A stretch of 64,000 nucleotides of DNA from Squalus acanthias (Eukaryota): assembly GCA_030390025.1 (NCBI GenBank), contig JASTWF010000034.1:2480001-2544000 (forward strand), written 5' to 3'. Of this stretch, positions 2,095 to 63,410 are shown piece by piece. Position 1 is the stretch's first letter. Each line of letters opens with the position of its first letter. Below the pieces are notes generated by a model. It was not told the origin of the DNA. It did no database searches and saw nothing but the letters and a program-made list of their open reading frames with translations. The position numbers and the translations under genes are program-made.

Positions 2095-2424
2095 CGCTTT
2101 ATAAAGGGTTATAAAGGATTATGCTGGGTTATAAATTATTATAAATGAATATAAAGTATTATAATGATATATAAAGGTTGATAATAGAATATAAAGTGCT
2201 ATGATGAATGGTTAAGTAATATAAAAGGTTGTAATGATCGGCAAAGGCTTATAAAGTGTTATAATGATTGACAAAGGATTATAAAGGGATTTGAATGGGG
2301 TACAAAGTGATGCAAAATATGATAAAGGGACATGACCCTTTATAAATCATTATAATTCTTAATAACCCGTTATACACCTTTTGTAAATGATTATTAAGGA
2401 TTCTAATGTTATAAAGAGTTATAA
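2095..2424. repeat. AT-rich low-complexity (ttataa-rich) tract
   Basis: Repeated ttataa/tataaa words. Confidence 0.7.
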
Positions 2425-5400: not shown

Positions 5401-5860
5401 GGCAGGTAGTGCACGGGTTAGGTACAGATTAAAGCTCCCTCTACAAATACCTATCGAACACTCCCAGGGCAGGTACAGCACAGGGATTGATGCAAAGTAA
5501 AGCTTCCTCTACAATGTCCCTTCAAATATTCCCAGGAAGATACAGCCCGGGTTAGATACAGAGTAAAGCTCCCTCTACAAAGACCCATCAAACACTCCCA
5601 GGGCAGGTACAGCACGGTTTAGATACAGAGTAAAGCTCCATCTACACATATCCATCAAACACTCCCAGGGCAGGTACAGCACGGGTTAGATACAGAGTAA
5701 AGCTCCCTCTACACTGTCCCATCAAACACTCCCAGGGCAGATACAGCACGGGTTAGGTACAGAGTAAAGCTCCCTCTACACTGTCCCATCAAACACTCCC
5801 AGGGCAGATACAGCACGGGTTAGATACAGAGAAAAGCTCCCTCTACCCTGTTCCATCAAA
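2425..5860 (+). repeat. 67-bp minisatellite, about 50 diverged copies
   Basis: Unit agctccctctacactgtcccatcaaacactcccagggcaggtacagcacgggttagatacagagtaa; 'agctcc' at 5701 and 5768. Confidence 0.95.
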
Positions 5861-17998: not shown

Positions 17999-18452
17999 CA
18001 GGGAACCCCACTGTCTACCTGCCTCCAGACCCCAGTACTGAACCCTAGGGAACTCCACTGTATACCTCCCTCCAGCCCCCAGTACTGAACCCTGGGAAAC
18101 TCCACTGTATACCTCCCTCCAGACCCCAGTACTGAACCCTGGGGAACTACACTGTATACCTCCCTCCAGACCCCAGTACTGAACCCTGGGGAACTCCACT
18201 GTATACCTCCCTCTATCCTCCAGTACTGAACCCTGGGGAACTCCACTATATACCTCCCTCCAGACCCCAGTACTGGACCCTGGGGAACTCCAGTGTATAC
18301 CTCCCTCCAGCCCCCAGTACTGAACCCTGGGGAACTCCACCATATACCTCCCTCCAGACCCCAGTACTGAACCCTGGGGAACTCCACTGTATACCTCCCT
18401 CCAGACCCAGTACTGAACCCTGGGGAACTCCACTATTTACCTCCCTCCAGCC
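17999..18452 (-). repeat. 47-bp CR1-RT-derived minisatellite (right block)
   Basis: Same unit as 12893-15061. Confidence 0.95.
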
Positions 18453-26000: not shown

Positions 26001-29000
26001 GTAAAACTGTCAGTTAATTGTTAAATTAGGTATGATAACCAATACACAGTGTAAAACTGTCACAGTTAATTGTTAAATTAGGTATGATAACCAATACACA
26101 GGGTAAAACTGTCACAGTTAATTGTTAAATTGGGTATGATAAACAATACTCAGGATGAAACTGTCAGTTAATTGTTAAATTGGGTATGATAACCAATACA
26201 TAGGGTAAAACTGTCACAGTTAATTGTTAAATTGGGTATGATAACCAATACACAGGGTAAAACTGTCACAGTTAATTGTTAAATTGGGTATGATAACCAA
26301 TACACAGGGTAAAACTGTCACAGTTAATTGTTAAATTGGGTATGATAACCAATACACAGGGTAAAACTGTCACAGTTAATTGTTAAATTGGGTATGATAA
26401 CCAATACTCAGGGTAAAACTGTCAGTTAATTGTTAAATTGGTATGATAACCAATACACAGGGTAAAACTGTCACAGTTAATTGTTAAATTGGGTATGATA
26501 ACAAATACACAGGGTAAAACTGTCAGTTAATTGTTAAATTGGGTATGATAACCAATACTCAGGTAAAACTGTCAGTTAATTGTTAAATTGGGTATGATAA
26601 CCAATACACAGGGTAAAACTGACAGTTAATTGTTAAATTGGGTATGATAACCAATACACAGGGTAAAACTGTCACAGTTAATTGTTAAATTGGGTATGAT
26701 AACCAATACTCAGGGTAAAACTGTCAGTTAATTGTTAAATTGGTATGATAACCAATACACCGGGTAAAACTGTCAGTTAATTGTTAAAATGGGTATGATA
26801 ACCAATACACAGTGTAAAACTGTCACAGTTAATTGTTAAATTGGGTATGATAACCAATACTCAGGGTAAAACTGTCAGTTAATTGTTAAATTTGGTATGA
26901 TAACCAATACACAGGGTAAAACTGTCCAGTTAATTGTTAAATTGGGTATGATAACCAATACACAGGGTAAAACTGTCACAGTTAATTGTTAAATTGGGTA
27001 TGATAACCAATACTCAGGTAAAACTGTCAGTTAATTGTTAAATTTGGGTATGATAACCAATACACAGGGTAAAACTGTCACAGTTAATTGTTAAATTGGG
27101 TATGATAACCAATACACAGGTTAAAACTGTCACAGTTAATTTTTAAATTGGGTATGATAACCAATACTCAGAATGAAACTGTCAGTTAATTGTTAAATTG
27201 GGTATGATAACCAATACACAGGGTAAAACTGTCACAGTTAATTGTTAAATTGGGTATGATAACCAATACTCAGGATGAAACTGTCAGTTAATTGTTAAAT
27301 TGGGTATGATAACCAATACACAGGGTAAAACTGTCACAGTTAATTGTTAAATTGGGTATGATAACCAATACACAGGGTAAAACTGTCAGTTAATTGTTAA
27401 ATTAGGTATGATAACCAATACACAGGGTAAAACTGTCACAGTTAATTGTTAAATTGGGTATGATAACCAATACTCAGGGTAAAACTGTCAGTTAATTGTT
27501 AAATTTGGTATGATAACCAATACACAGGGTAAAACTGTCAGTTAATTGTTAAATTAGGTATGATAACCAATACACAGTGTAAAACTGTCACAGTTAATTG
27601 TTTAAATTGGGTATGATAACCAATACACAGGTTAAAACTGTCACAGTTAATTTTTAAATTGGGTATGATAACCAATACTCAGGATGAAACTGTCAGTTAA
27701 TTGTTAAATTGGGTATGATAACCAATACACAGGGTAAAACTGTCAGTTAATTGTTAAATTGGGTATGGTCACCAATACACATGGTAAAACTGTCACAGTT
27801 AATTGTTAAATTGGGTATGATAATCAATACACAGGGTAAAACTGTCATTTAATTGTTAAATTGGGTATGATAAACAATACACAGGGTAAAACTGTCAGTT
27901 AATTGTGAAATTGGGTATGATAACCAATACACAGTGTAAAACTGTCACAGTTAATTGTTAATTTGGTTATGATAACCAATACATCGATGAAACTGTCACA
28001 GTTAATTGTTAAATTGGGTATGATAAACAATACACAGGGTAAAACTGTCAGTTAATTGTTAAATTGGGTATGATAAACAAGACACAGGGTAAAACTGTCA
28101 GTTAATTGTTAAATTGGGTATGATAACCAATACACAGGGTAAAACTATCACAGTTAATTGATAAATTGGGTATGATAACCAATACACAGCAAAACTGACA
28201 GTTAATTGTTAAATTGGGTATGATAACCAATACTCAGGGTAAAACTGTCAGTTAATTGTTAAATTAGATATGATACCAATACACAGGGTAAAACAGTCCA
28301 GTTAATTGTTAAATTGGGTATGATAACCAATACACAGGGTAAAACTGTCACAGTTAATTTTTAAATTGGGTATGATAACCAATACTCAGGATGAAACTGT
28401 CAGTTAATTGTTAAATTGGGTATGATAACCAATAAACAGAGTAAAACTGTCACAGTTAATTGTTAAATTGGGTAAGATAACCAATACACAGGGTAAAACT
28501 GTCACAGTTAATTGTTAAATTGGGTATGATAACCAATACACAGGGTACAACTGTCATTTAATTGTTAAATTGGGTATGATAACCAATACACAGGGTAAAA
28601 CTGTCACAGTTAATTGTTAAATTGGGTATGATAACCAATACACAGGGTAAAACTGTCACACTTAATTGTTAAATTGGATATGATAACCAATACACAGGGT
28701 AAAACTGTCACAGATAATTGTTAAATTGGGTATGATAACCAATACACAGAGTAAAACTGTCACAGTTAATTGTTAAATTGGGTATGATAACCAATACTCA
28801 GGGTAAAACTGTCACAGTTAATTGTTAAATTGGGTATAATAACCAATACACAGGGTAAAACTGTCTTAGTTAATTGATAAATTGGGTATGATAACCAATA
28901 CACAGTAAAACTGACAGTTAATTGTTAAATTGGGTATGATAACCAATACACAGAGTAACAACTGTCACAGTTAATTGTTAAATTGGTATGATAACCAATA

Positions 29001-32000
29001 CACAGGGTAAAACTGTCAGTTAATTGTTAAATTGGGTATGATAACCAATACACAGGGTAAAACTGTCAGTTAATTGTTAAATTGGGTATGATAACCAATA
29101 CACAGGGTAAAACTGTCACAGTTAATTGTTAAATTGGGTATGATAACCAATACACAGGGTAAAACTGTCACAGTTAATTGTTAAATTGGGTATGATAACC
29201 AATACACAGGGTAAAACTGTCACAGTTAATTGTTAAATTGGGTATGATAACCAATACACAGGGTAAAACTGTCAGTTAATTGTTAAATTGGGTATGATAA
29301 CCAATACACAGGGTAAAACTGTCACAGTTAATTGTTAAATTGGGTATGATAACCAATACACAGGGTAAAACTGTCACAGTTAATTGTTAAATTGGGTATG
29401 ATAACCAATACACAGGGTAAAACTTTCACAGTTAATTGTTAAATTGGGTATGATAACCAATACACAGGGTAAAACTGTCACAGTTAATTGTTAAATTGGG
29501 TATGATAACCAATACACAGGGTAAAACTGTCACAGTTAATTGTTAAATTGGGTATGATAACCAAGTCACATGGTAAAACTGTCACAGTTAATTGTTAAAC
29601 TGGTATGATAACCAATACACGTGTAAAACTGTCACACTTAATTGTGAAATTGGGTATGATAACCAATACACAGTGTAAAACTGTCACAGTTAATTGTTAA
29701 TTTGGTATGATAACCAATACATCGATGAAACTGTCACAGTTAATTGTTAAATTGGGTATGATAAACAATACACAGGGTAAAACTGTCACAGTTAATTGTT
29801 AAATTGGGTATGATAAACAATACACAGGGTAAAAACTGTCAGTTAATTGTTAAATTGGGTATGATAACCAATACACAGGTAAAACTGTCACAGTTAATTT
29901 TAAATTGGGTATGATAACCAATACACAGGGTAAAACTGACAGTTAATTGTTAAATTGGGTATGATAACCAATACACAGGGTAAAACTGTCAGTTAATTGT
30001 TAAATTGGGTATGATAACCAATACACAGGGTAAAACTGTCACAGTTAATTGTTAAATTGGGTATGATAACCAATACACAGGGTAAAACTGTCACAGTTAA
30101 TTGTTAAATTGGGTATGATAACCAATACACAGGGTAAAACTGTCAGTTAATTGTTAAATTGGGTATGATAACCAATACACAGGGTAAAACTGTCACAGTT
30201 AATTGTTAAATTGGGTATGATAACCAATACACAGGGTAAAACTGTCACAGTTAATTGTTAAATTGGGTATGATAACCAATACACAGGGTAAAACTGTCAC
30301 AGTTAATTGTTAAATTGGGTATGATAACCAATACACAGGGTAAAACTGTCACAGTTAATTGTTAAATTGGGTATGATAACCAATACACAGGGTAAAACTG
30401 TCACAGTTAATTGTTAAATTGGGTATGATAACCAATACACAGGGTAAAACTGTCACAGTTAATTGTTAAATTGGGTATGATAACCAATACACAGGTAAAA
30501 CTGTCACAGTTAATTGTTAAATTGGGTATGATAACCAATACACAGGGTAAAACTGTCACAGTTAATTGTTAAATTGGGTATGATAACCAATACACAGGGT
30601 AAAACTGTCACAGTTAATTTAATTGTTAAATGGTATGATAACCAATACACAGGGTAAAACTGTCACAGTTAATTGTTAAATTGGGTATGATAACCAATAC
30701 ACAGGGTAAACTGTCACAGTTAATTGTTAAATTGGGTATGATAACCAATACACAGGGTAAAACTGTCAGTTAATTGTTAAATTGGGTATGATAACCAATA
30801 CACAGGGTAAAACTGTCACAGTTAATTGTTAAATGGGTTTGTAAGGTTATAAACCTGTCATACACAGGGGGTTAAACTGTCACAGTTAATTGTTAAATTG
30901 GGTATGATAACCAATACACAGGGTAAACTGTCACAGTTAATTGTTAAATTGGGTATGATAACCAATACACAGGGTAAAACTGTCACAGTTAATTGTTAAA
31001 TTGGGTATGATAACCAATACACAGGGTAAAACTGTCAGTTTAATTGTTAAATTGGGTATGATAACCAATACACAGGGTAAAACTGTCACAGTTAATTGTT
31101 AAATTGGGTATGATAACCAATACACAGGGTAAAACTGTCACAGTTAATTGTTAAATTGGGTATGATAACCAATACACAGGGTAAAACTGTCACAGTTAAT
31201 TGTTAAATTGGGTATGATAACCAATACACAGGGTAAAACTGTCACAGTTAATTGTTAAATTGGGTATGATAACCAATACACAGGGTAAAACTGTCACAGT
31301 TAATTGTTAAATTGGTATGATAACCAATACACAGGGTAAAACTGTCACAGTTAATTGTTAAATTGGGTATGATAACCAATACACAGGGTAACTGTCACAG
31401 TTAATTGTTAAATTGGGTATAATAACCAATACACAGGGTAAAACTGTCAGTTAATTGTTAAATTGGGTATGATAACCAATACACAGGGTAAAACTGTCAG
31501 TTAATTGTTAAATTGGGTATGATAACCAATACACAGGGTAAAACTGTCAGTTAATTGTTAAATTGGGTATGATAACCAATACACAGGGTAAAACTGTCAC
31601 AGTTAATTGTTAAATTGGGTATGATAACCAATACACAGGGTAAAACTGACAGTTAATTGTTAAATTGGGTATGATAACCAATACACAGGGTAAAACTGTC
31701 AGTTAATTGTTAAATTGGGTATGATAACCAATACACAGGGTAAAACTGTCACAGTTAATTGTTAAATTGGGTATGATAACCAATACACAGGGTAAAACTG
31801 TCACAGTTAATTGTTAAATTGGGTATGATAACCAATACACAGGGTAAAACTGTCAGTTAATTGTTAAATTGGGTATGATAACCAATACACAGGGTAAAAC
31901 TGTCACAGTTAATTGTTAAATTGGGTATGATAACCAATACACAGGGTAAAACTGTCACAGTTAATTGTTAAATTGGGTATGATAACCAATACACAGGGTA

Positions 32001-35000
32001 AAACTGTCACAGTTAATTGTTAAATTGGGTATGATAACCAATACACAGGGTAAAACTGTCACAGTTAATTGTTAAATTGGGTATGATAACCAATACACAG
32101 GGTAAAACTGTCACAGTTAATTGTTAAATTGGGTATGATAACCAATACACAGGAAAACTGTCACAGTTAATTGTTAAATTGGGTATGATAACCAATACAC
32201 AGGGTAAAACTGTCACAGTTAATTGTTAAATTGGGTATGATAACCAATACACAGGGTAAAACTGTCAGTTAATTGTTAAATTGGGTATGATAACCAATAC
32301 ACAGGGTAAAACTGTCACAGTTAATTGTTAAATTGGTATGATAACCAATACACAGGGTAAAACTGTCACAGTTAATTGTTAAATTGGGTATGATAACCAA
32401 TACACAGGGTAAAACTGTCAGTTAATTGTTAAATTGGGTATGATAACCAATACACAGGGTAAAACTGTCACAGTTAATTGTTAAATTGGGTATGATAACC
32501 AATACACAGGGTAAAACTGTCACAGTTAATTGTTAAATTGGGTATGATAACCAATACACAGGTTAAAACTGTCACAGTTAATTGTTAAATTGGTATGATA
32601 ACCAATACACAGGGTAAAACTGTCACAGTTAATTGTTAAATTGGGTATGATAACCAATACACAGGGTAAAACTGTCAGTTAATTGTTAAATTGGGTATGA
32701 TAACCAATACACAGGGTAAAACTGTCACAGTTAATTGTTAAATTGGGTATGATAACCAATACACAGGGTAAAACTGTCACAGTTAATTGTTAAATTGGGT
32801 ATGATAACCAATACACAGGGTAAAACTGTCACAGTTAATTGTTAAATTGGGTATGATAACCAATACACAGGGTAAAACTGTCACAGTTAATTGTTAAATT
32901 GGGTATGATAACCAATACACAGGGTAAAACTGTCACAGTTAATTGTTAAATTGGGTATGATAACCAATACACAGGGTAAAACTGTCACAGTTAATTGTTA
33001 AATTGGGTATGATAACCAATACACAGGGTAAAACTGTCAGTTAATTGTTAAATTGGGTATGATAACCAATACACAGGGTAAAACTGTCACAGTTAATTGT
33101 TAAATTGGGTATGATAACCAATACACAGGGTAAAACTGTCAGTTAATTGTTAAATTGGTATGATAACCAATACACAGGGTAAAACTGTCAGTTAATTGTT
33201 AAATTGGGTATGATAACCAATACACAGGGTAAAACTGTCACAGTTAATTGTTAAATTGGGTATGATAACCAATACACAGGGTAAAACTGTCACAGTTAAT
33301 TGTTAAATTGGGTATGATAACCAATACACAGGGTAAAACTGTCACAGTTAATTGTTAAATTGGGTATGATAACCAATACACAGGGTAAAACTGTCACAGT
33401 TAATTGTTAAATTGGGTATGATAACCAATACACAGGGTAAAACTGTCACAGTTAATTGTTAAATTGGGTATGATAACCAATACACAGGGTAAAACTGTCA
33501 CAGTTAATTGTTAAATTGGGTATGATAACCAATACACAGGTAAAACTGTCACAGTTAATTGTTAAATTGGGTATGATAACCAATACACAGGGTAAAACTG
33601 TCACAGTTAATTGTTAAATTGGGTATGATAACCAATACACAGGTAAAACTGTCACAGTTAATTGTTAAATTGGGTATGATAACCAATACACAGGGTAAAA
33701 CTGTCACAGTTAATTGTTAAATTGGGTATGATAATACACAGGGTAAAACTGTCACAGTTAATTGTTAAATTGGGTATGATAACCAATACACAGGGTAAAA
33801 CTGTCACAGTTAATTTTAAATTGGGTATGATAACCAATACACAGGGTAAAACTGTCACAGTTAATTGTTAAATTGGGTAATAAAATACACAGGGTAAAAC
33901 TGTCACAGTTAATTGTTAAATTGGGTATGATAACCAATACACAGGGTAAAACTGTCACAGTTAATTGTTAAATTGGGTATGATAACCAATACACAGGGTA
34001 AAACTGTCAGTTAATTGTTAAATTGGGTATGATAACCAATACACAGGGTAAAACTGTCACAGTTAATTGTTAAATTGGGTATGATAACCAATACACAGGG
34101 TAAAACTGTCACAGTTAATTGTTAAATTGGGTATGATAACCAATACACAGGGTAAAACTGTCAGTTAATTGTTAAATTGGGTATGATAACCAATACACAG
34201 GGTAAAACTGTCAGTTAATTGTTAAATTGGGTATGATAACCAATACACAGGGTAAAACTGTCACAGTTAATTGTTAAATTGGGTATGATAACCAATACAC
34301 AGGGTAAAACTGTCACAGTTAATTGTTAAATTGGGTATGATAACCAATACACAGGGTAAAACTGTCAGTTAATTGTTAAATTGGGTATGATAACCAATAC
34401 ACAGGGTAAAACTGTCACAGTTAATTGTTAAAAGGGTATGATAACCAATACACAGGGTAAAACTGTCACAGTTAATTGTTAAATTGGGTATGATAACCAA
34501 TACACAGGGTAAAACTGTCACAGTTAATTGTTAAATTGGGTATGATAACCAATACACAGGGTAAAACTGTCACAGTTAATTGTTAAATTGGGTATGATAA
34601 CCAATACACAGGTAAAACTGTCACAGTTAATTGTTAAATTGGGTATGATAACCAATACACAGGAAAACTGTCACAGTTAATTGTTAAATTGGGTATGATA
34701 ACCAATACACAGGGTAAAACTGTCACAGTTAATTGTTAAATTGGGTATGATAACCAATACACAGGGTAAAACTGTCAGTTAATTGTTAAATTGGGTATGA
34801 TAACCAATACACAGGGTAAAACTGTCACAGTTAATTGTTAAATTGGGTATGATAACCAATACACAGGGTAAAACTGTCACAGTTAATTGTTAAATTGGGT
34901 ATGATAACCAATACACAGGTAAAACTGTCACAGTTAATTGTTAAATTGGGTATGATAACCAATACACAGGGTAAAACTGTCACAGTTAATTGTTAAATTG

Positions 35001-35054
35001 GGTATGATAACCAATACACAGGTAAAACTGTCACAGTTAATTGTTAAATTGGGT
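20080..35054. repeat. ~15-kb AT-rich satellite, 50/52-bp unit (about 290 copies), runs into the assembly gap
   Basis: Unit gttaattgttaaattgggtatgataaccaatacacagggtaaaactgtca(ca); e.g. period 52 between 22981 and 23033. Confidence 0.98.
21631..21748 (-). mobile_element. Penelope-like terminal fragment inserted in the satellite
   Basis: aatactgcggatgctggaaat...gttaacgtttcaggtc matches 63419-63525; truncated within the hammerhead motif. Confidence 0.8.
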
Positions 35055-35254
35055 NNNNNNNNNNNNNNNNNNNNNNNNNNNNNNNNNNNNNNNNNNNNNN
35101 NNNNNNNNNNNNNNNNNNNNNNNNNNNNNNNNNNNNNNNNNNNNNNNNNNNNNNNNNNNNNNNNNNNNNNNNNNNNNNNNNNNNNNNNNNNNNNNNNNNN
35201 NNNNNNNNNNNNNNNNNNNNNNNNNNNNNNNNNNNNNNNNNNNNNNNNNNNNNN
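35055..35254. other. Assembly gap (200 N)
   Basis: Run of N. Confidence 1.
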
Positions 35255-38105
35255 ACCAGGCAATTGCGATGGCTCAGTCATCACTTAATACCAGAATTTC
35301 TGGCTTTTGTATGGTTGAAATAACACTTAATGGTCACAGGTATCCCTCCACCCGGCTTTCGGTGCTCAAGGATTTATGTAGTGATCTTATCTTAGGGCTG
35401 GATTTTCAAAAGCAGCATAAGAAGCTCACCATTGAGTTCGGCGGATGCAAACCTGAACTCACTATTTCTAATATACGACCTCGATTACCGTTCTGTGCAT
35501 TGTCAGCAGCTTCACTGGATGAACCCTTACTGTTTACCAGTCTCCCTCCTCGATGCAAACCGATTATAACAAAGTCACGACGTTTCAGTCAGGAAGACCA
35601 GTCTTTTATTGCGGCTGAGATTTCTCGGCTTTTAGCAGAGGATATCATCGAGCCTTGTTCGTCACCATGGCGCGCCCAGGTCGTTATTGTTAAGAACCCT
35701 CTACAACCTCACAAGAAACGGCTGTGCATTGACTATTCACAGACCATCAATCAATATACGGACTTGGACGCATACCCATTGCCGCGCATCGATGATATGG
35801 TTAATAAACTGGCTGAGTACACGGTGTTCTCAACATATGATCTGAAAAGTGCCTATCATCAGGTACCCTTGAAGGTCTCTGACAATCAGTATACGGCCTT
35901 TGAAGCCAATGGACGGCTGTATCAATTTCGTCGCCTCCCCTTTGGGGTCACTAATGGAGTGGCTGTCTTCCAGCGAGCAATGGATGACCTGGTCAAACAG
36001 GAAGACTTGAAGGATACGTTTCCTTATCTGGACAATATTACTGTCGCAGGTCGCAATCAGCGGGAACATGACGCCAATCTCCAACGATTTTGGGATGCAC
36101 TCCAGCACCGTAATTTGACATTAAATGCGGCTAAATCCATTGAGTCACAACCAACCATCAACATCCTTGGCTATTGTGTGGGCAATGGCATCATTAAACC
36201 TGACCCTGAAAGGCTTCGCCCACTCCAAGAACTCCCGCCACCTAAGAATCCCGGCCTCCTTGCGCCGGGCCCTCGGCCTGTTTGCATACTATGCTAAATG
36301 GATTCCTAACTTCTCGGACCGAATCCAACCTCTACTGAAGGCCAGCACATTCCCACTAGACACAGCGGCTGTTGCAGCCTTTAACCTCCTGAAAAAACAG
36401 TTGGAGAAAGCGGCTCTTCACTCCATCGATGAGAGTCTTCCTTTTGTTGTTGAGTGTGATGCCTCGGAGGTGGCGATCTCGGCCACTCTGAATCAGGAAG
36501 GTCGTCCGGTGGCATTTTTGTCCAGGACTTTTCAAGGGGCTGAGCTACAGTATCCTCCAGTCGAGAAAGAAGCTACAGCCATCATAGAGGCAGTACGGAA
36601 GTGGAGTCATCTCCTAGCTCGCCAGCACTTTACCTTAATCACGGACCAACGATCGGTCGCCTTCATGCTCGATAATCGAAAACGGACCAAAATTAAAAAT
36701 AATAAAATCCAGCTTTGGCGGCTGGAATTGGCCTCTTTTGGTTACACCATCCACGATCGACCTGGCAAGGAGAATGTGGCTCCGGATACCCTCTCTCGAG
36801 CATTCTGCTCCGCCATGGCACCCTCTACGCTCGTAGACATCCATGATGGGTTGTGTCATCCGGGGCGTTACTCGCATGCTACACTTCGTGCGGTCCCGAA
36901 ATCTCCCATTCTCTACCGGGGATGTAAAGAAGATGTGCTCGGACTGCAGAGTCTGTGCGGAATTGAAACCTCAGTTTTTCCGCCCCTCGTGTGGTATACT
37001 CATACATGCGACCCAGCCAATGCAACGGCTTAGCATCGATTTTAAGGGGCCGTTGCCCTCTTCAACTCGCAACACTTATCTGTTGACCATGGTCGATGAG
37101 TATTCCCGTTTTCCGTTTGCCTTTCCCTGCCCCAATATGCTGACGACCACGGTTATCAGCTGCCTTGAGCAGGTATTTGCTTTCTGTGGCATGGCATCCT
37201 ATGTTCATTCGGATCGGGGCCCTTCTTTTATGTCAGGAGAACTCAAGGCCTATCTCTCGGAACGGGGTATTGCTGCCAGCAGAACGACGCCTTATTATCC
37301 GGTCGGGAATGGGCAAGTCGAGCGTTTTAACGCTATCATCTGGAATGCTGTACGTCTGGCTTTGAGATCTCGGGGCCTACCCAACCAGCAATGGGAAGCA
37401 GTACTTCCAGACGCATTACACTCCACATGGTCCCTCCTTTCGACCGCCACAAATACGACGCCTCATGAACGGTTCTTCCGATTTCAGCGTCGCTCATCCT
37501 ATGGGATATCTCTCCCGTCGTGGCTGACTACACCGGGACCAGTGCTACTCCGAAGATATGTCCGGGCATCTAAGAATGACCCCCTGGTAGATGAAGTTGA
37601 GCTCACTGACGTCAACCCTACCTACGCCTATATTCGGTATCCTGACGGTCGGGAATCTACCGTGTCATTGCGGGATCTGGCTCCCTGCCCGCCGAAACAT
37701 AGAGGGACACCAGGGGATGATATTGTACCAGGCACATCTCTGGGCTCGCCAGGTGCCTCTCATCACGATCTGGATCTGACGCCGGCTGGTACCTCACTCC
37801 AGCGTGCCGACCTGGGGCAGACTGAGTATGAGCCCGTCGGGGCTCGCACGCACAGCCACGATCCACCCCGTACCGTACGCTCGGAAACGGATCTGCCACA
37901 GCCCTGCCCGACACCCGTTCGGGCACCAGTACACAGTCAGGATCGTCCTGACCCCTCACAGAGCGGGCTGGATCACTCGGACTCTGGTCCACGGCCCGCG
38001 GCGGGTAAACGGGCTAGGGGCCCTCTACCGCAACGAGAACCCAAATGGGTGCGGCTCTCCCTCGTCCAGCGGCTACGAAATGGAGGGAGCATCCCGGCCT
38101 CCTAA
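35255..38105 (+). mobile_element. pol: Ty3/Gypsy LTR retrotransposon pol (protease C-terminus, RT, RNase H, integrase) with two +1 frameshifts
   Basis: LILGLDF; SPWRAQV; DLKSAYHQ; LPFGVTN; YLDN; RNase H CDAS..EKEA..TDQ; integrase HHCC plus D,D(35)E (SIDFKGP, HSDRG, NGQVER). RT-RH-IN order. Confidence 0.95.
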
Positions 38106-43029: not shown

Positions 43030-43560
43030 TTGCACCTCAATCCAGGAATTTCATTCCCAAGGTCGCCTAGATTACACTGCTCCCGCCTTAGTCCAGGAAT
43101 TTTATTCCCAGGGCCGCCTAGTTTACACTGCTCCCGCCTCAGACCAGGAATTTTATTCCCAACGCCAACCAGTTTACACTGCTCCCGCCTCAATCCAGGA
43201 ATTTCATTCCCAGGGCCCCCTAGTTTACACTGCTCCCGCCTCAGACCAGGAATTTTATTCCCAACGCCAACCAGTTTACATTGCTCCCGCCTCAATCCAG
43301 GAATTTCATTCCCAGGGCCCCCTAGTTTACACTGCTCCCGCCTCAATCCAGGAATTTAATTCCCAATGTCGCCTAGATTACACTGCTCCTGCCTTAGTCC
43401 AGGAATTTTATTCCCAGGGCGGCTAGTTTACACTGCTCCCGCCTCAGACTAGGAATTTTATTCCCAGGGCCCTCTAGTTTACACTGCTCCCGGCTCAATC
43501 CAGGAATTTTATTCCCAGGGCCTCCTAGTTTACACTGCTCCCGCCTCAGTCCAGGAGTTC
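43030..43560. repeat. 51-bp minisatellite, about 10 copies
   Basis: Unit ccaggaattttattcccagggccgcctagtttacactgctcccgcctcaga; starts at ~43042, 43093, 43144. Confidence 0.95.
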
Positions 43561-49618: not shown

Positions 49619-52486
49619 TCAGTATCCCGTCCCCGCCTTCTCTCCGTAACCCTTAACCCCTTTTGCCTGTAGAAATACATCTAATTCCCTCTTAAATATA
49701 TTTAATAAGCTGGCGTACACTGCCCTCTGTGGCAATGAGTTCCACAGGTTCACCACCCTCTGAGTGAAGAAATTCCCCCTCATTTCTGTCCTAAATGGTT
49801 TAGCCCTTATCCTTAAATTATGTCCTCTAGTTCTGTTCTCACCCGCCAAGGGAAACATTCCTTCTGCATCTAGTCTGTCTAGACCTGTCAGAATTTTATA
49901 CACTTCTATGAGGTCCCCTCTCAATCTTCTAAACTCCAGTGTGTACATCCCTAAACTACATAGTCTCTCCTCATAGGTCAATCCCGCCATTCCTGGTATC
50001 AGCCTGGTGAATCGCCGCTGCACCCCCTCCATGGCAAGAACATCTTTCCTCAGATGAGGCGACCAAAACTGTACACAGTACTCGAGGTGTGGTCTCACCA
50101 GTGCCCTGTACAGCTGCAGCAAGGTATCCCTGTTCCTGTATTCCAACCCTTTTGCTATGAAGGCCAGCATACCGTTTGCCTTCTTGATCGCCTGTTGCAC
50201 CTGCATGCTCGCCTTCAGTGACTGGTGTACAAGAACACCCAGGTCTCTCTGTACTTCCCCCTCTCCCAATTTATTGCCATTTAAATAATAATTTGCCCTC
50301 CCGTTCCTGCACCCAAGGTGGATAACTTCGCACTTGTCCACATTATAGTGCATCTGCCATTTATCCGCCCAATCACCCAGTCTGTCCAAATCGCTCTGGA
50401 GCTTCCTGGTCTCCTCCTCTGAGCCCACCCCCCCTCCTAGTTTAGTGTCGTCTGCAAATTTGGAAATGCTGCATCCGACTCCCTGATCCAGGTCATTAAT
50501 GTAAATTGTGAACAGCTGGGGACCCAGGACAGATCCCTGTGGTACCCCACTTGTTACTGCCTGCCATTCAGAAAATGAGCCGTTTATTCCAACTCTCTGT
50601 TTTCTATCTGACAGCCAGTTCTCTATCCACGTCAATACTTTCCCCTTTATCCCATGAGCTTCAATTTTCCCTGCTAATCTTTTATGTGGGACCTTATCGA
50701 AGGCCTTTTGGAAGTCCAGGTACACCACATCTACTGGCTCTCCCCCATCTATTTTACCAGTTACTCCCTCAAAAAATTCCAATAGATTAGTCAAGCACGA
50801 TTTACCCTTTGTAAATCCATGTTGACTCTGTCCTATCCTGTCCCCATTTGCTAAGTGCTCCGCTATTTCATCCTTAATGATGGACTCCAGCATTTTGCCC
50901 ACAACTGATGTAAGGCTCACAGGTCTGTAATTACCTGCTTTTTCCCTACCCCCCTTTTTGAATAGTGGGGTAACGTTAGCTACCCTCCAATCCATGGGCA
51001 CTGTTCCCGAGTCTAATGAATTCTGAAAAATCATACTTAGTGCATCCGCTATCTCTAGGGCCACCTCCTTCAGCACCCTAGGATGCATGTTATCAGGCCC
51101 TGGGGATTTGTCCGCCTTCAATCCCTTTAGCTTCCTTAACACCATATCCTTAGAGATATTGACTTGCGTCAGTTCCTCCTTTGCAAATGTCCCTATTTTT
51201 CCCGATATCCCAGGGAGGTTTTTTGTGTCTTCCTTCGTAAAGACTGACCCAAAGTATGCATTTAGTTGGTCTGCCATTTCCTTATTTCCCGTTATATATT
51301 CCCCCGTATCTGACTGCAATGGGCCAACTTTGGTTTTCACCAGTCTTTTCCTCTTGATATACTTATAAAAGCTTTTGGAGTTAGTTTTTATATTTTCCGC
51401 CAGCTTGCTTTCGTAAGCTATTTTGCCCCTCTTGATTAAGCCCTTTGTCCTCCTTTGCTCTATCTTAAACTGTTCCCAATCTTCCGCTCTGGCGCTTTTT
51501 TTGGCTATTTTATACGCCCTATCTTTGGATTTTATGCTGTCTCTAATTTCCCCTGTTATCCACGGTTGAGTCACCTTTTTAGATTTCCTTTTATGCCAGA
51601 TTGGTATAAACAATTTTTGCAATTTTGTCATTCTATCTTTAAATGCTTGCCATTGTTTATCTACCTCCAGTCCTCCCAGGAACGTTGTCCAATCAGACCT
51701 ACTCAGTTCCCGTCTAATGGCATCATAATTCCCCTTGTTTAAATTCAGGACCTTAGTATCTGAGTCAATTTCTTCGCTCTCCATTTCGAGTGAGAAATCG
51801 ATCATGTTATGATCGCTCTGACCCAAGGGTCCCCGTACAACAAGATTACTAATTAGTCCCTTCTCATTGCACAGTACCCAGTCCAATATAGCCTGTTCCC
51901 GAGTTGGTTCCTCGACATATTGATCCAGATAACCATCCCTTAAACACTCAAGGAATTCCTCCTCCTCATTATTTTTACTGATTAGGCTATTCCAATCTAT
52001 ATGTAAGTTAAAGTCACCTATGATGACAGCTGTGCTCTTATTGCACGCTTCTCTAATTTCCCTCGTGATGCCCTCCCCAACCTCTATTTTACTATTTGGA
52101 GGCCTATATACCACTCCTATTAATGTTTTTCGCCCCTCGCTATTTCTTAGCTCCACCCATATAGATTCTGTATTAACTGAGTTAATATCCTTCCTTTCAA
52201 TTGCATTTATCCCTTCTTTTACCAGCAATGCTACCCCTCCTCCCTTTCTTTTTTGTCGATCCTTCCTAAATACTGAATACCCCTGTATGTTAAGCTCCCA
52301 GCCCTGCTCACCCTGCAACCATGTTTCCGTAATCCCAATTAGATCATAATTATTAACCTCTATTTCCACAGCTAATTCATCTACCTTGTTCCTGATGCTT
52401 CTCGCATTAAGGTATAAAACCCTCAGGCTTTTTTTATGCTCACATTTTTTATGAATTAGTTTGGCCCTTTGTTTTTTGTTCCTCAC
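49619..52486 (-). CDS. Intact CR1 ORF2 (APE endonuclease plus reverse transcriptase), 955 aa
   Basis: Uninterrupted ORF with NARS, ETW, YRPP, GDFN, SDH, DFQKAFD, GVPQGSVLGP and FADD. Confidence 0.95.
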   Translation of the reverse strand: MRNKKQRAKLIHKKCEHKKSLRVLYLNARSIRNKVDELAVEIEVNNYDLIGITETWLQGEQGWELNIQGYSVFRKDRQKRKGGGVALLVKEGINAIERKDINSVNTESIWVELRNSEGRKTLIGVVYRPPNSKIEVGEGITREIREACNKSTAVIIGDFNLHIDWNSLISKNNEEEEFLECLRDGYLDQYVEEPTREQAILDWVLCNEKGLISNLVVRGPLGQSDHNMIDFSLEMESEEIDSDTKVLNLNKGNYDAIRRELSRSDWTTFLGGLEVDKQWQAFKDRMTKLQKLFIPIWHKRKSKKVTQPWITGEIRDSIKSKDRAYKIAKKSARAEDWEQFKIEQRRTKGLIKRGKIAYESKLAENIKTNSKSFYKYIKRKRLVKTKVGPLQSDTGEYITGNKEMADQLNAYFGSVFTKEDTKNLPGISGKIGTFAKEELTQVNISKDMVLRKLKGLKADKSPGPDNMHPRVLKEVALEIADALSMIFQNSLDSGTVPMDWRVANVTPLFKKGGREKAGNYRPVSLTSVVGKMLESIIKDEIAEHLANGDRIGQSQHGFTKGKSCLTNLLEFFEGVTGKIDGGEPVDVVYLDFQKAFDKVPHKRLAGKIEAHGIKGKVLTWIENWLSDRKQRVGINGSFSEWQAVTSGVPQGSVLGPQLFTIYINDLDQGVGCSISKFADDTKLGGGVGSEEETRKLQSDLDRLGDWADKWQMHYNVDKCEVIHLGCRNGRANYYLNGNKLGEGEVQRDLGVLVHQSLKASMQVQQAIKKANGMLAFIAKGLEYRNRDTLLQLYRALVRPHLEYCVQFWSPHLRKDVLAMEGVQRRFTRLIPGMAGLTYEERLCSLGMYTLEFRRLRGDLIEVYKILTGLDRLDAEGMFPLAGENRTRGHNLRIRAKPFRTEMRGNFFTQRVVNLWNSLPQRAVYASLLNIFKRELDVFLQAKGVKGYGEKAGTGY

Positions 52487-52560
52487 TCTTTTACCATTTA
52501 TTTCTGTCTGCCTTTCACTTTCCTCTATTTCACTACATAGGTTTCTAGCCCCCTGCCATA

Positions 52561-53166
52561 CTAGTTTAAATGCTCCCGAACTGCTTTATCAAAAATTACC
52601 CCGAGAACATCAGTTCCATCTTTGCACAGGTGTAGACCGTCCCTTTTGTATAGGTCACACCTACCACAAAACTGGTTCCAATGCCTCAAAAATTTAAAAC
52701 CCTCCCTCTTACACCACTGCTCAAGCCACGTATTTAGCCTAACTATCCTGTTCTCTGTACTCTTACTAGCACGTGGCACTGGTAGTAATCCAGAGATTAC
52801 TACCTTCGAGGTCCTACTTTTTAGCTTGGCTCCTAACTCCCTAAATTCTACTTGTAGGAGCTCTTCCCTTTTTTTAGCTACGTCGTTGGTACCAACATGT
52901 ATCACGACAACTGGCTGTTCCCCCTCCCCCTCCAGAATGTTCTGCACCCGCGCCGAGACATCCTTGACCCTTGCACCAGGGAGGCAACATACCATCCTGG
53001 AGTCTCGGTCGCGACCACAGAAACCCCTATCTATTCCCCTTACAATCGAATCCCCTATTACTATAGCCCTGCCACTCTTTTTCCCTCCCTTCTTTGCAAC
53101 AGAACCAGTCATGGTGCCATGAGCCTGGCTGCTGGTGCCTTCCCCCGATGAGTCATCCCCCCCGAC
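52561..53166 (-). CDS. CR1 ORF1 C-terminal SGNH/esterase-like domain (5'-truncated)
   Basis: GDSIVRG, GTND and DGLH motifs in an open frame. Confidence 0.85.
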   Translation of the reverse strand, partial: VGGDDSSGEGTSSQAHGTMTGSVAKKGGKKSGRAIVIGDSIVRGIDRGFCGRDRDSRMVCCLPGARVKDVSARVQNILEGEGEQPVVVIHVGTNDVAKKREELLQVEFRELGAKLKSRTSKVVISGLLPVPRASKSTENRIVRLNTWLEQWCKREGFKFLRHWNQFCGRCDLYKRDGLHLCKDGTDVLGVIFDKAVREHLN

Positions 53167-54109
53167 AATATCTCCAAGTTTGCAGACGACACAAAACTGG
53201 GTGGGCGTGTGTGCTGCGAGGAGGATACCGAGAAACTCCAGGATGATTTGGACAGATTGGGTGAGTAGGCAGAAGCGTGGCAGATGCAATATAACGTGGA
53301 TAAATGCGAGGTTATCCACTTTGGTGTCAAAAACAGAAAGGCAGATTATTATCTGAATGGCAATAGATTGGGAGAAGGGGAAGTGCAACGAGACCTGGGT
53401 GTCCTTGTGCACCAGTCGCTGAAGGTAAGCATGCAGGTGCAGCAGGCGGTTAGGAAGGCAAATGGTATGTTGGCCTTCATAGTGAGAGGGTTTGAGTACA
53501 GGAACAAGGATGTCTTGCTGCAGTTGTACAGGGCCTTGGTGAGATCACACTTTGAGTACTGTGTGCAGTTTTGGTCAACTTATCTGAGGAAGGATGTTCT
53601 TGCCATGGAAGGAGTTCAGCGAAGATTCACAAGGCTGATAGCTGGGATGGCAGGAATGACGTATGAAGAGAGATTGGGTCGACTGGGCTTATACTCGCTG
53701 GAGTTCAGAAGAATGAGAGGGGATCTCATTGAAATTTATAAAATTCTGACAGGACAGGACAAACTAGATGCAGGAAGGATGTTCCCGATGGTCGTGAATC
53801 CAGAACCAGGGGTCACAGTCTAAGGATAAGGGGTAAGCCATTTCGGCAGAAATGAGGAGGAATTTGTTCACCCAGTGAGTGTTGAACCTGTGGAATTCTC
53901 TGCCACAGCAGGCGGTAGAGGGCAATTCATTAAATAGATTCAAGAAGGAGTTGGATATATTTCTTAAGGCTAAAGGGATCAAGGGATATGGGGAGAAAGC
54001 AGGGACAGGGTACTGAATTTGGATGGTCAGCCATGATCGCATTGAATAGTGGAGCAGGCTAGAGGGGCCGAATGGCCTACTCCTGCTCTTGTCTTCTATG
54101 ATTCTATGG

Positions 54110-55771: not shown

Positions 55772-56262
55772 AGGGGTGAGGCCGTGGTGGTATTTGATCT
55801 TAAGGATGAGAATATTAAAATCGAGTTGTTGCCGGATCGGGAGCAAATGTTGATCAGTGATCACAGGGGTGATGGGTGAACGGGATTGGTGCGAGTTAGG
55901 ATATGGGCAGCAGAGTTTTGGATGAGCTCTAGTTTATGGAGGCTTGTAACCAGAAGGCCGGCCAGCAGAGCATTGGAATAGTTGAGTCTGGTTTTAACAA
56001 AGGCACGGATGATGGTTTATGCAGCGGAAGGGCTGAGGTGGAGCGTAGATGGGTGAAATTTTGGAAGTGGTAGCGGGCAGGACTGGTGATTCAGAAGATA
56101 TGAGTTCGGAACTCAGCTCAGGGACAAAGAGATCACAGAGGTTGCAAAGAGTCTGGTTCAGCCTCAGACATTGACCAGGGATGGGGACTGAATCGGATGA
56201 TAGAGAATGGAGTTTGCGATGTGGAGCGAAGACAATGGCTTTGCTCTTCCCAAGATTTAAAT
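55772..56262 (-). mobile_element. Degenerate L2 fragment
   Basis: Reverse-complement similarity to ~19030-19520. Confidence 0.75.
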
Positions 56263-56506
56263 GACAAACAGTAATAAAGTGAAACGTGGTTTACAGATCC
56301 AATTTCTGTATATGGAGACTTACCAAGGCCACCAACAGCAGCAAATAATGAAGAATAGTAATACAGTTAGCAAAGGTTTGCAGAGTTAATAGCCGGTTAG
56401 TGACACTTACCAGGAACAACAACTGCAGCAAGGAGTGGACAGTAAATGACAAGAACGGTAATACAGTAAAACATGGATAACAGAATAGCTGGATAGAGAG
56501 ACTTAC

Positions 56507-56729
56507 CAGGAACACCAACAGCAGCAAGGAGCGGATAGTAAATGCATTGAATAATCTGAAGTACGTAATAGATCCGATATTCTAATGTTAGTTCCTCATA
56601 ATGTTCTGCAAGATGGTCAACCTGCCAGGAGAAACTCCTGCCCATTGCTGTAACATTCCAATCTACTGTCCTCAGATTCCGACCCATTGTTGTAACATTC
56701 CAATCTACTGTCCTCAGATTCCGACCCAT
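56507..56729 (-). CDS. Exon 1 of a GPR139/GPR142-like class A GPCR (N-terminus and start of TM1)
   Basis: MGRNLRTVDWNVTT repeats then ..IQCIYYPLLAAVGVP G|GTAAGT, a phase-1 donor. Resembles GPR139 VYYSLLLCLGLPA, whose intron falls at this position (recalled). Exon 2 was not found in the window. Confidence 0.7.
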
Positions 56730-56829
56730 TGTTGTAACATTCCAATTAACTGTTTTCAGATTCCGAGTCCCGCTCTGTGGAGCAGCGCGCTGATCCCTGT
56801 CAGTGCCGGTGGTGATGTCCTCACTGACA

Positions 56830-56955
56830 CTATGGGATAACACATTGAAAGGAATCCCTTATTAATAGAAGAGGGAAACCCTGCACTGACACAATTAGAG
56901 TCCATGGAGACTGACATTAATTACAGTCACTAAACAAACAGCTTCAGTTAACCCC
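56830..56955 (-). promoter_or_regulatory. Promoter of GPCR copy 1
   Basis: TATTAATAA (minus strand, 56859-56867) and cattaattacagtcactaaacaaacag (56915-56941), both conserved with 59240-59360. Confidence 0.55.
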
Positions 56956-56989
56956 TTTCAATCCAACACTTTTTGTACCACAGTAAACT

Positions 56990-57600
56990 AGATCATTTAC
57001 CCGGTCCGGATGGGATGTATGAGGGTTGCTGAGGGAAGGAATGGTGGAAACAGCGCACGATCTGGCCAGAAGATTTTAATCCTCCTTGGATATGGGAGTG
57101 GTGCCAGAGGACTGGAGGGTTTAAAATGTTACACCCTGTTCAAAAAAGGAGAGAGGGATAAACCTTGTAACTACAGGCCAGTCAGCCTAACGACAGTGGT
57201 GGGTAAAATTTTAGAGGCCGTATTCCAGGAGAAAATTATCTGTCTTTGGAACAAACATGGATTAATAAATGACAACCAGCACAGATATGTTAACAGCAAA
57301 GTGTGTCTGACAAACCTGATTGAGTTCTGTGATGAAGTAACGGAGAGGGTTGATGAGGGTAGTGCGGTTGATGTTGTATATATGGACTTTAAAATTTATT
57401 TTTAATGAAGTGCCACTGAATAGATTGCTTGGACCAAAGGGACAGTGGTAGTGGGGATCTGACATTGGCTCAGGGACATAAAAGAGAATCGTGGTGAACG
57501 GTTGTTATTCAGATTGGAGGGAAATGTACAGTGGTGACCCCCAGGGGTGGCTATTCGGACCACTGCTCTTTTTGATATATGTTAATGATATAGACATATA
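56990..57600 (+). mobile_element. CR1 RT fragment
   Basis: NYRPVSLT, CLTNLIEF, VVYMDF. Confidence 0.85.
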
Positions 57601-57614
57601 TATAGACAGACTGG

Positions 57615-58113
57615 TGAAATGAGCAAAGTGATGAAAGGTGTCGTCGACAGTGCTATTAAGCGGCACTTACTCACCAATAACCTGCTCACCGATGTTCAGT
57701 TTGAGTTCCGCCAGGACCACTTGACTGCAGACCTCACTACAGGCTTGGTCCAAACATGGACAAAAGAGCTGAATTCCAGAGGTGAGGTGAGAGTAACTGC
57801 CCTTGACATCAAGGCAGCATTGGATTAAGTGTGGCATCAAGGATCCCGAGTAAAATTGAAGTCAATGGGAAGCAGGGGGAAAACTCTACACTGGCTGGAG
57901 TCATACCTACCACAAATAAAGATGATTGTGGTTTTTGGATGTCAATCATCACAGCCCCAGGACATCGCTGCAGGAGTTCCTCAGGGCAATGTCCTCGGCC
58001 CAGACATCTTAAGCTACTTCATCAATGACCTTTGCTCCATCATATGGTCAGATGTGGGGATGTTCGCTGATGATTGCTCAGTATTCAGTTCTATTCGCAA
58101 CTACGCAGATAAT
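57615..58113 (+). mobile_element. RT fragment of a different LINE family
   Basis: ALDIKAALD*VWH, GVPQGNVLGP, FADD. Confidence 0.8.
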
Positions 58114-58320
58114 GACCTCAGCAGCGTTCTGAGGTCGCGCCTCGATCCCCGACGTTTGTGCCTTCAGAGAGGTGTGTAGCGCCTGATTTGGTGCTCATAT
58201 CACCTCCAGGGGCGATAGAGGTGAATTTTGCATTCGGAGACGGTAACTCGCGCCGGGCGCTAAGCTTTGCGTCCGACCGATATTAGCGCCTCAGAATGGG
58301 CGATTCCCATTTCCCCCCCC
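58114..58320. mobile_element. CpG-rich fragment, possibly a MITE end
   Basis: Abrupt GC/CpG-rich segment ending in atttcccccccc; small hairpin gacctcag..ctgaggtc. Confidence 0.3.
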
Positions 58321-58540
58321 ATGGTCTACAGAATTAATAGCTGGAAACAGAGACATACCAGGAACACCAACAGTAGCGAGGATGTTCCAGTATGTTTATA
58401 CAAGAACCCATGTCTTAATAAAGACGCAAATACCTGAAACACAGAATACCACTAATAACTGAATACCCACGGTAAATATCAAGAATAATATTACAGTGTT
58501 ACATGGTTTATAGAATTAAAAACTGGACATAGATATTTAC

Positions 58541-58631
58541 TAGGAACAGCAACAGCAGCGAGGAGGGGATATTAAATATTTTGTATATCATAAAACATTC
58601 CCAATATCCAAAACACTTCACCGCAATCCAT
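58541..58631 (-). pseudogene. Exon 1 of a second GPR139-like paralogue, disabled
   Basis: MDCGEVFWILGMFYDIQNI*YPLLAAVAVP A|GTAAAT; TAA at 58572-58574; CR1 inserted at the ATG. Confidence 0.7.
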
Positions 58632-59177
58632 GCAGTTTTGGTCGCCTTATCTGAGGAAGGATGTTCTTGCAATGGAGAGATTGCAGCGAAGATTCACCAG
58701 GCTGATACCTGGGATTGCAGGAATGAGGTATGAGGAGAGATTGGGTCGATTGGGCTTATACTCGCTGGAGTTGAGAAGAATGAGAGGGGATTTCATTTAA
58801 ACTAATAAAATTCTAACAGGACTAGATAGACTAGATGCAGGAAGGACGTGCCCGATGGTGGGGGAGTCCAGAACCAGGGGTCACAGTCTAAGGATAAGAG
58901 ATAAGCCATTTAGTACAGCAATGAGGAGGAATTTCATCACCCAGAGAGTGGTAAACCTGTGGAATTCTCTACCAGAGAAGGCAGTGGAGGCCAATTCATT
59001 AAATATATTCAGGAAGGAGTTAGATATATTTCTTACGGCTAAAGGGATCAAGGGTAGTGGGGAAAAGGCAGGGACAGGGTACTGAATTTGGATGATCAGC
59101 CATGATCTCATTGAATAGCGGAGGAGGCTCGAGGGGCCGAATGGCCTACACCTGCTCCTATCATCTATGTTTCTATG
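58632..59177 (+). mobile_element. CR1 3' fragment inserted at the GPCR start codon
   Basis: QFWSPYLRKD..FITQRVVNLWNSLP plus 3' UTR; ATGC at both junctions (58630-58633, 59175-59178). Confidence 0.9.
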
Positions 59178-59360
59178 CCTTCCCTTCTGTGAGTGTCTGG
59201 TGGTCTTTGTGCAGGAGGCAGCGCGCTGACTGTGTGAGGTAACACAGTGAAGGGAGCTCTTTATTTACAGCAGAGGGAAATCCGCGAGTGACATCATTAG
59301 GCTTCAGTGTAACTGGCATTAATTACAGTCATTGAACAAACAGACTCATTGAACCATTGT
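59178..59360 (-). promoter_or_regulatory. 5' UTR and promoter of GPCR copy 2
   Basis: Aligns with 56780-56955. Confidence 0.55.
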
Positions 59361-59711
59361 CACAACACTTTACTGCAACACAATCTACCTCACCTTATTG
59401 TACACAGTTTTAAATTAAAGGTGAGCGAATGCGTAATATTTCACCTGCTAATAAATATAAGAATATACGAATTAGGAGTAGAAGTAGGCAATACGGCCCT
59501 TCGAGCCCTTCATTGAATGAGATCATGGCTGATCTTCGACCTCAAATCCACATTTCCCCCACACCCACCCCATCCTTATATCTCTTGATTCCTGTAGAGT
59601 CCAAAAATACCGAGGATAGAACAGAGAGAAGGGAGTTTCTCTTCCTGTATTGATCTAAAGCTGAGAATCAAAGACGAGAAGCTAACAGAAAAAAGGAAAG
59701 AATAATGTGTT

Positions 59712-60152
59712 AGCTGTAGCTCAGTGGGTAGGACACTCGCCTCTGACTAAGAAGGTTGTGGGTTCAAGACCCACTCCAAGGTCTTGTAGCGCATAAATCT
59801 AGGCTGACACTCCAGTGCAGTGCTGAGGGAGTGCTGCACTGTCGGAGGTACCGTCTTTCGGATGAGATGTTAAACAGTCTGTGCTCTCAGGTGGACGTAA
59901 AAGATCCCATGGCCCTATTTCGAAGAAGAGCAGGGGAGTTATCCCCGGTGACATGGCCAATATTTATCCCTCAATCAACATAATGGTCATTATCACATTG
60001 CCGTTTGTGGGAGCTTACTGTGCGCAAATTGGCTGCTGCGTTTCGACATTACAACAGTGGCTACACTTCCAAAAGTACTTCACTGGCTGTAAAGCGCATG
60101 AAACGTCCGTCTGTCGTGAAAGGCGCTATATAAATGCAAGTCTTTCTTTCTT
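59712..60152 (+). mobile_element. tRNA-derived Deu-domain SINE (SacSINE1/AmnSINE-like)
   Basis: A box tagctcagtgg, B box ggttcaagacc; Deu-like core ggaggt.ccgtctttcggatgaga.gttaaac; L2-like tail. Confidence 0.8.
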
Positions 60153-63030: not shown

Positions 63031-63036
63031 GACAGT

Positions 63037-63410
63037 GTCAGCTGTGGCTCAGTTGGCAGCACACTCACCTCTCAGTCAGCAGGTTGTGGGTTTCAAGTCC
63101 CACTCCAGGGATTTGAAGCCATACATCTGGGCTGACACTCCAGTGTAGCACTGAGGGGGTGCTGCACTGTTGGAGGTGCCGTCTTTCGGATGAGACGTTA
63201 AACCGAGGCCCCGTCTGCTCTCAGGAGGATGTCAAAGATCCCATTGCACTAGTTTGAAGATGAATAGTGGAGTTATCCCCGGTGTCCTGGCCAATATTTA
63301 TCCCTCAATCAACATAACAAAAACAGTTCATCTGAGCATTATCACATTACAGTTTGTGGGAGCTTACTGTGCCCAACTTGGCTGCCGCTTTTCCCACATC
63401 TTAGCCCTTA
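63037..63410 (+). mobile_element. Second Deu-domain SINE copy, 3'-truncated by a PLE insertion
   Basis: Colinear with 59712-60055. Confidence 0.8.

Follow-up and report, generated by a model that had tools for sequence, protein, structure and literature searches.

The window analysed here, a stretch of 64,000 nucleotides of Squalus acanthias DNA, contains two related modules on its minus strand, A and B, each comprising the promoter, the 5' UTR, exon 1 and the beginning of the intron, that is, the 5' module of a gene from a chondrichthyan family of class A G-protein-coupled receptors (GPCRs). The promoter cassette of copy A (56824..56972, delimited by blastn, by alignment of A with B and by inspection of motifs) carries, reading toward the start codon, a forkhead-like TGTTTGT (56934-56940), a homeodomain-like TAATTA (56918-56923), a second homeodomain-like site, TAATTG (56892-56897), a kB-like GGGTTTCC (56874-56881), a TATA-like element (56859-56867) and an initiator-like TCAGT (56823-56827). 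All of these motif names are matches to consensus sequences, and are presumptive in that sense. The cassette is followed by a presumed 5' UTR of about 95 bp (56730..56823), which is common to other family members as judged from five gene models that read through it (P0046, P0061, P0253, P0109 and P0114), and then by the coding part of exon 1 (56507..56729), an open frame of 74 stop-free codons with its ATG at 56729 in a strong start context. A 42-bp tandem repeat in three copies (56641..56766, by repeat analysis, same strand) specifies a 14-residue unit with an N-glycosylation sequon, which is present in 0 to 8 copies across the family.

Exon 1 of copy A ends in a TM1 motif with a consensus phase-1 donor (GT at 56506-56505), as in full-length family members, and by alignment the end of the exon with its donor recurs twice, in decayed form, at the start of the intron (56258..56506; GT at 56410 and at 56323). 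The second donor lies 96 bp farther and is in frame; its use would add 32 hydrophobic residues. The exon 1 peptide matches 26 full-length 7tm_1 proteins among 129 candidates at 41-66% identity, all of them from sharks and all named 'probable G-protein coupled receptor 139'. As far as it is seen, copy A looks intact.

Copy B is in a different state. Its cassette (59226..59371, by blastn, alignment and motif inspection) has the elements of A at the spacing of A, again as consensus matches: TGTTTGT (59336-59342), TAATTA (59320-59325), TAATGA (59294-59299), the kB-like counterpart GGATTTCC (59276-59283) and a TATA-like element (59261-59269). By alignment, only 48 bp of 5' UTR remain (59178..59225), and between promoter and start codon blastn identifies 547 bp from the 3' part of a CR1-type LINE on the plus strand (58631..59177), 88-90% identical to other copies within the window and with no target-site duplication seen. 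The remnant of exon 1 (58541..58631, by translation and alignment) has 30 codons of a subtype with a short N-terminus, with an in-frame TAA at 58572-58574, and at its donor an A replaces the G just before the GT. The aligned intron start (58320..58540) is homologous to that of A and contains two more repeats that resemble donors (GT at 58433 and at 58358). Among 302 proteins, the B peptide has its best local matches in P0034 and P0035, two Heptranchias proteins with a short N-terminus, and the loose ends of contigs from two public runs, X3 and X9, read by hand, show a B-type N-terminus without the stop. Copy B is dead because of the stop codon, the LINE insertion and the lack of an exon 2 before A, and it is a pseudogene fragment of another subtype, so that the outer N-termini of A and B cannot be aligned. 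The claim in the first-pass annotation that the N-termini are not alignable holds for this outer part; the last 12 codons, by contrast, align at 32/37 nucleotides.

The likeness of the two modules had been noted as two pairs of short strings at matching spacing, and this is confirmed: all four strings are found where the first-pass annotation placed them, and the pairs are identical at 34/44 and 25/27 positions with a single constant offset of 2402. They belong to a gapless block of 104 bp (56838-56941 versus 59240-59343) with 78/104 identity, which blastn widens to 56824-56972 versus 59226-59371, and the homology runs on for about 220 bp into the intron. The local score of A against B is 99, compared with a maximum of 33 over 1000 dinucleotide shuffles, and the 27-bp core motif occurs exactly twice in the 64-kb window where 0 occurrences are expected. 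What was duplicated between A and B is a 5' module. The description of the pair as two tandem paralogues, taken to mean genes, does not survive, since both are exon-1 modules only, with no 7TM exon found in the 64 kb, and B is broken as described above. The observation is real but partly misread: what the window holds is a promoter passed down with two first exons, one of them intact and the other dead. Rfam gave no match within 55-64 kb of the window, a 26-bp array looked for in this interval was not found, and metagenomes scanned with either the core motif or the family protein P0016 gave no match.

The family to which the modules belong is large. In a search with P0016, 2,419 of the 8,000 candidate clusters reached E<=1e-10, of which those past the best 120 may include other receptors; the best 120 all come from five sharks, with 41 counted from Heptranchias and 65 from Heterodontus. 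Among 30 representatives, the first ten of them chosen as the most distant, 23 are from sharks, rays or a chimaera, five from bony vertebrates and one from a lamprey. In a quick tree of 79 hand-picked proteins, midpoint-rooted and without human GPR139, the named chondrichthyan proteins form one group with moderate support (88), and salamander, coelacanth, teleost and lamprey proteins fall outside it. Together with the dead copy inside the window, the family searches and the tree support the proposal of a birth-and-death GPCR family of cartilaginous fish.

The label 'GPR139-like' is right as to relationship but not as to identity. P0016 matches human GPR139 at 48.9 bits (E 6e-12), and its best match among solved structures is to GPR139/GPR142 entries (PDB 7vug and 9m42). 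The salamander, coelacanth and teleost proteins score 84-141 bits against the shark family and 53-70 bits against human GPR139. At 48.9 bits for P0016 and 53-70 bits for the bony relatives, neither is the GPR139 orthologue. The proteins P0241, P0250, P0259, P0269 and P0267, from salamander, coelacanth and teleost and also named 'probable GPR139', are distant from human GPR139, and from their sequences seem to form a further GPR139/142-related lineage that is closer to the shark family.

That the cassette is shared with genes other than the A/B pair is borne out both by bridging contigs from related sharks and by gene models that read through it. At an identity of at least 80%, 875 contigs in X3 and 1059 in X9 lie on copy A; the shares of these runs (0.26 and 0.15) mark them as relatives and not exact matches. 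Of the 8 long pieces listed for each run, 5 in X9 and 2 in X3 span the interval between the proximal cassette and the N-terminal repeat, and others cover the cassette, with identities of 81-87%. The promoter and intron are also covered in X15 and X17, which we guess to be RNA runs; no spliced joint is present among the joints listed for these two, and their coverage has no bearing on expression.

Translations of the cassette or UTR find counterparts in five gene models (blastp E<0.6 with a clear alignment). In one frame, P0046 from Heterodontus matches the translated cassette of A at 28/44 positions, P0061 from Pristiophorus at 18/27 and the truncated P0253 at 20/30; in another frame, P0109 (Heptranchias, short type) and P0114 give weak matches. 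The same UTR motif is present in P0126 and P0297 (Pristiophorus, short type). Three further blastp rows and one row for B were left out as chance TM1-like matches. For P0046, the 28/44 in pseudo-translation compares with 25/46 in the real exon 1 and implies a DNA identity of about 80%. A database search with the translated cassette gave no match among 15 candidates, the word index being too coarse for this (P0046 does match locally). The read-through models span three shark orders, represented by Heterodontus, Pristiophorus and Heptranchias, and because they use two different frames the stretch is non-coding. In other sharks, the cassette is linked to complete 7TM receptor genes.

A unit of 47-51 bp with the homeodomain and forkhead-like sites (56905-56954 in the window) forms tandem repeats in related sharks, as many of their contigs in X3, X9 and X15 show. 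In X9, 16, 6, 6 and 6 contigs support such repeat joints among the joints listed. The unit is single in both window copies.

Is the cassette conserved more strongly than its surroundings, as the first-pass annotation would have it? The comparison of A with B gives a different picture. The promoter is identical at 108/146 positions versus 138/206 for the intron (Fisher p 0.19) or 50/68 for the first 68 intron bases (p 1.0), and third codon positions are identical at 9/12. The core is more alike than the spacer (25/27 vs 19/33), which in simulations is not significant after choosing the best window (P 0.12-0.53). Mismatches in the gapless block are distributed 12/5/9 by codon position, which decides nothing. 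Two hints speak for special conservation: there is no indel in its 104 bp and there are several in the intron, and the pseudo-translated stretch in P0046 is as similar to A as the real exon 1 is. Intron pieces in relatives are 85-94% alike, as much as promoter pieces are, with the floor of 80% biasing both. A motif no better conserved than neutral flanking DNA had been named beforehand as an outcome that would count against the common-promoter proposal, and no better conservation is what we find, though the intron start may itself not be neutral, and there is no clean neutral control because retroelements bound both copies. Since the cassette is conserved no better than the intron start, descent by duplication explains the likeness, and special selection on the cassette is unproven. 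A third hint in favour is that in the quick tree the A-type and short-type genes form one clade with support 100 that has a skate protein inside it, so that the split between the subtypes, and with it the cassette, may be old.

We propose that the unit copied in the expansion of this two-exon GPCR family would be the core promoter with the 5' UTR, exon 1 and the intron start, and that A and B would be two such blocks from two subtypes, one with a long glycosylated N-terminus (A) and one with a short N-terminus (B). From its position and motifs, the cassette would be the ordinary proximal promoter of the family, with a TATA/initiator-like core and, about 60-115 bp above it, the homeodomain and forkhead-like sites. 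The same position and motifs suggest that all members may be expressed from it in much the same kind of cell, and the copies would have it in common mainly by descent. We regard this anatomy, together with the proximal-promoter reading, as likely to be correct.

The strongest competitor, which we consider quite possible though not our favoured account, is that both modules are relics: A, too, would be without its exon 2, and the likeness would be a neutral residue of slow substitution in sharks or of gene conversion. Specifically, no 7TM exon is found in the 64 kb, either by tblastn with full-length relatives, where the listed output covers about 15 of the 26 queries, or with an exon-2 profile built from 106 sequences, where the best domain has an E of 0.31; none is matched in the 56 kb downstream of A inside the window, nor among the retroelement fragments between A and B (56999..58319, by blastn and tblastn, with Pfam RVT_1 at 57829-58176). 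The surroundings are dominated by repeats (of the 64,000 bases, 49,643 belong to sequence that recurs inside the window), and a LINE fragment starts 27 bp above the cassette of A, with retroelements about 80 bp above that of B. The uniform identity of about 75% over promoter, intron start and third positions is also as expected of relics. Against this, A has its open 74-codon frame, strong start context and consensus donor. Exon 2 may be concealed or shifted by an assembly gap of 200 N (35055-35254), which follows a 15-kb satellite at a distance of 21 kb downstream of A. Moreover, 45 of 83 representative gene models are without exon 1, which points to introns that are often long or filled with repeats in the family. 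The 7TM exon of A may lie beyond the gap or beyond the window, or may have been lost.

A second alternative, which we think unlikely, is that the cassette is a selected choice element in the style of odorant receptors (ORs), that one receptor is expressed per sensory cell, and that a gene is more likely to be chosen when its 50-bp homeodomain/forkhead unit is multiplied. The excess of matches in the core over the spacer, the gapless spacing, the two homeodomain-like sites in each copy, the tandem repetition of the unit in contigs of X9, X3 and X15 and the possible age of the cassette, given the skate protein in the A-type and short-type clade, would all fit. However, the core excess is not significant, and tandem repeats arise everywhere at these loci, including the coding 42-bp unit and the intron donor repeats, so that the multimers need no function. 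By its consensus, neither cassette contains an O/E (Olf-1/EBF) site, which is typical of odorant receptor promoters.

The coding regions of OR and V1R genes are intronless. The intron of the shark family, unlike these, interrupts TM1. Like the present cassette, the promoters of mouse OR and V1R genes have in common a short signature that includes homeodomain sites, and they too belong to a large, clustered family with pseudogenes (PMC3247230); in our copies, the homeodomain sites near the start are two TAAT-core sites each, as sequence matches only. The shark cassette differs from these promoters in its forkhead-like, kB-like and TATA-like elements as well as in the missing O/E site. A special role of the common stretch as a gene switch is hypothetical.

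It is very improbable that A and B are alternative first exons with their own promoters and one shared 7TM exon, as in the protocadherin or UGT1 loci. The two do stand head to tail on the same strand with no exon 2 between them, but B is broken, and among 104 relatives there are 0 pairs with an identical exon 2 and a different exon 1 (the nearest is at 0.95/0.70), although clustering at 90% could hide some. That the cassette is coding, as an N-terminal extension or an upstream ORF from an ATG at 56905, is largely refuted and has next to nothing left in its favour: P0046 begins at the equivalent ATG and continues in frame into the receptor, but other models use another frame, the frame in A stops before the main ORF and this ATG is missing from B.

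Returning to the reading of the cassette as an inherited proximal promoter, what the receptors behind it detect can be approached through their relatives. GPR139 and GPR142 are class A orphan receptors activated by L-Trp and L-Phe, and according to PMC5430874 the four residues F109, H187, W241 and N271 are needed for activation of GPR139 by Trp and Phe. We mapped these positions by hand from a structure alignment, with H187 anchored on the TM5 proline, in 99 relatives, since the window lacks exon 2. Three of the four are retained or conservatively replaced in these relatives, F/Y3.33 (94/99), H5.43 (95/99) and W6.48 (99/99), but N is found in 0/99 at the N271 position, where they mostly have F, and P6.50 in 1/99. 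Conservation by column in the 99 relatives is 0.55 for the N-terminus, 0.59 for ECL2 and 0.69 for outer TM6/ECL3, versus 0.95-0.96 for TM3 and ICL1, i.e., the outer loops vary and the G-protein face is constant. The shark family also differs from GPR139 in its dozens of copies per species. According to PMC12208981, GPR139 is highly conserved in vertebrates, and 48.9 bits is much too low a score for an orthologue of such a gene.

From this pattern, the receptors probably form a diversified repertoire for amino-acid-like or peptide-like chemicals, in which a common G-protein face would be combined with a variable outer face. A chemosensory role of the family is plausible on these grounds, though GPCR paralogues often have variable outer loops whatever their function, which counts against that conclusion. 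For the proposition that the expressing cells might be external chemosensory cells, we see the balance as about even. The clade of MIP, sex-peptide and FMRFamide receptors has expanded into chemoreceptors (nematode srw and similar). GPR139 and GPR142 cluster with these invertebrate receptors (PMC8514136 and PMC12208981). One relative has a weak Pfam Srx match (E 3e-4, below the cut-off), which would be in keeping with that clade, but the shark family is an independent vertebrate expansion. A more far-reaching version, which we hold to be doubtful, is that cartilaginous fish possess a further, large class of chemoreceptors from the GPR139/142 peptide-receptor lineage, distinct from OR, TAAR, V1R and V2R, in which one-per-cell choice would act through the cassette and the copies of the core unit would set the frequency of choice.

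The large shark and ray receptor family behind the cassette is the chief point of interest, and it is apparently undescribed. Its annotation consists of the automatic name 'probable GPR139' only, and we could not find the expansion described in the literature searched, which covered few subscription journals and included PMC12294341; the main text of PMC11979771 has no mention of GPR139. According to PMC8455134 and PMC11979771, sharks have few GPCRs and odorant receptors, and PMC8455134 notes a paucity of GPCRs for cartilaginous fish. If a family of dozens or more members per species is concealed by a single automatic name, the view of sharks as GPCR-poor would have to change. The locus alone adds little, with one intact and one dead first exon; it is the family that carries the interest. 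The cassette provides a DNA signature for first exons that annotation often misses, as in the 45 of 83 models above, and a 150-bp reporter candidate for locating the cell type.

The rest of the window contains other repeats. The 15-kb satellite that ends at the 200-N gap (20102-35054) has a 52-bp unit in 292 copies with 92% matches, and directly after the gap follows an LTR-retrotransposon-like pol on the plus strand (35255-38105) with reverse transcriptase and integrase domains. A 47-bp satellite (12891-15064 and 18001-18450) is apparently derived from a short stretch of CR1 reverse-transcriptase coding sequence, and other satellites, whose units measure 75, 67 and 51 bp, lie at 209-923, 2422-5860 and 43035-43556. 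A near-intact CR1-type LINE on the minus strand (49619-53544) has an open frame of 988 codons for an endonuclease and a reverse transcriptase; ahead of it lies another frame, which contains a GDSL-esterase domain. Finally, two SINE-like copies of 340 bp (59707-60044 and 63035-63393) are 81% alike and have, by eye, a tRNA-like head.
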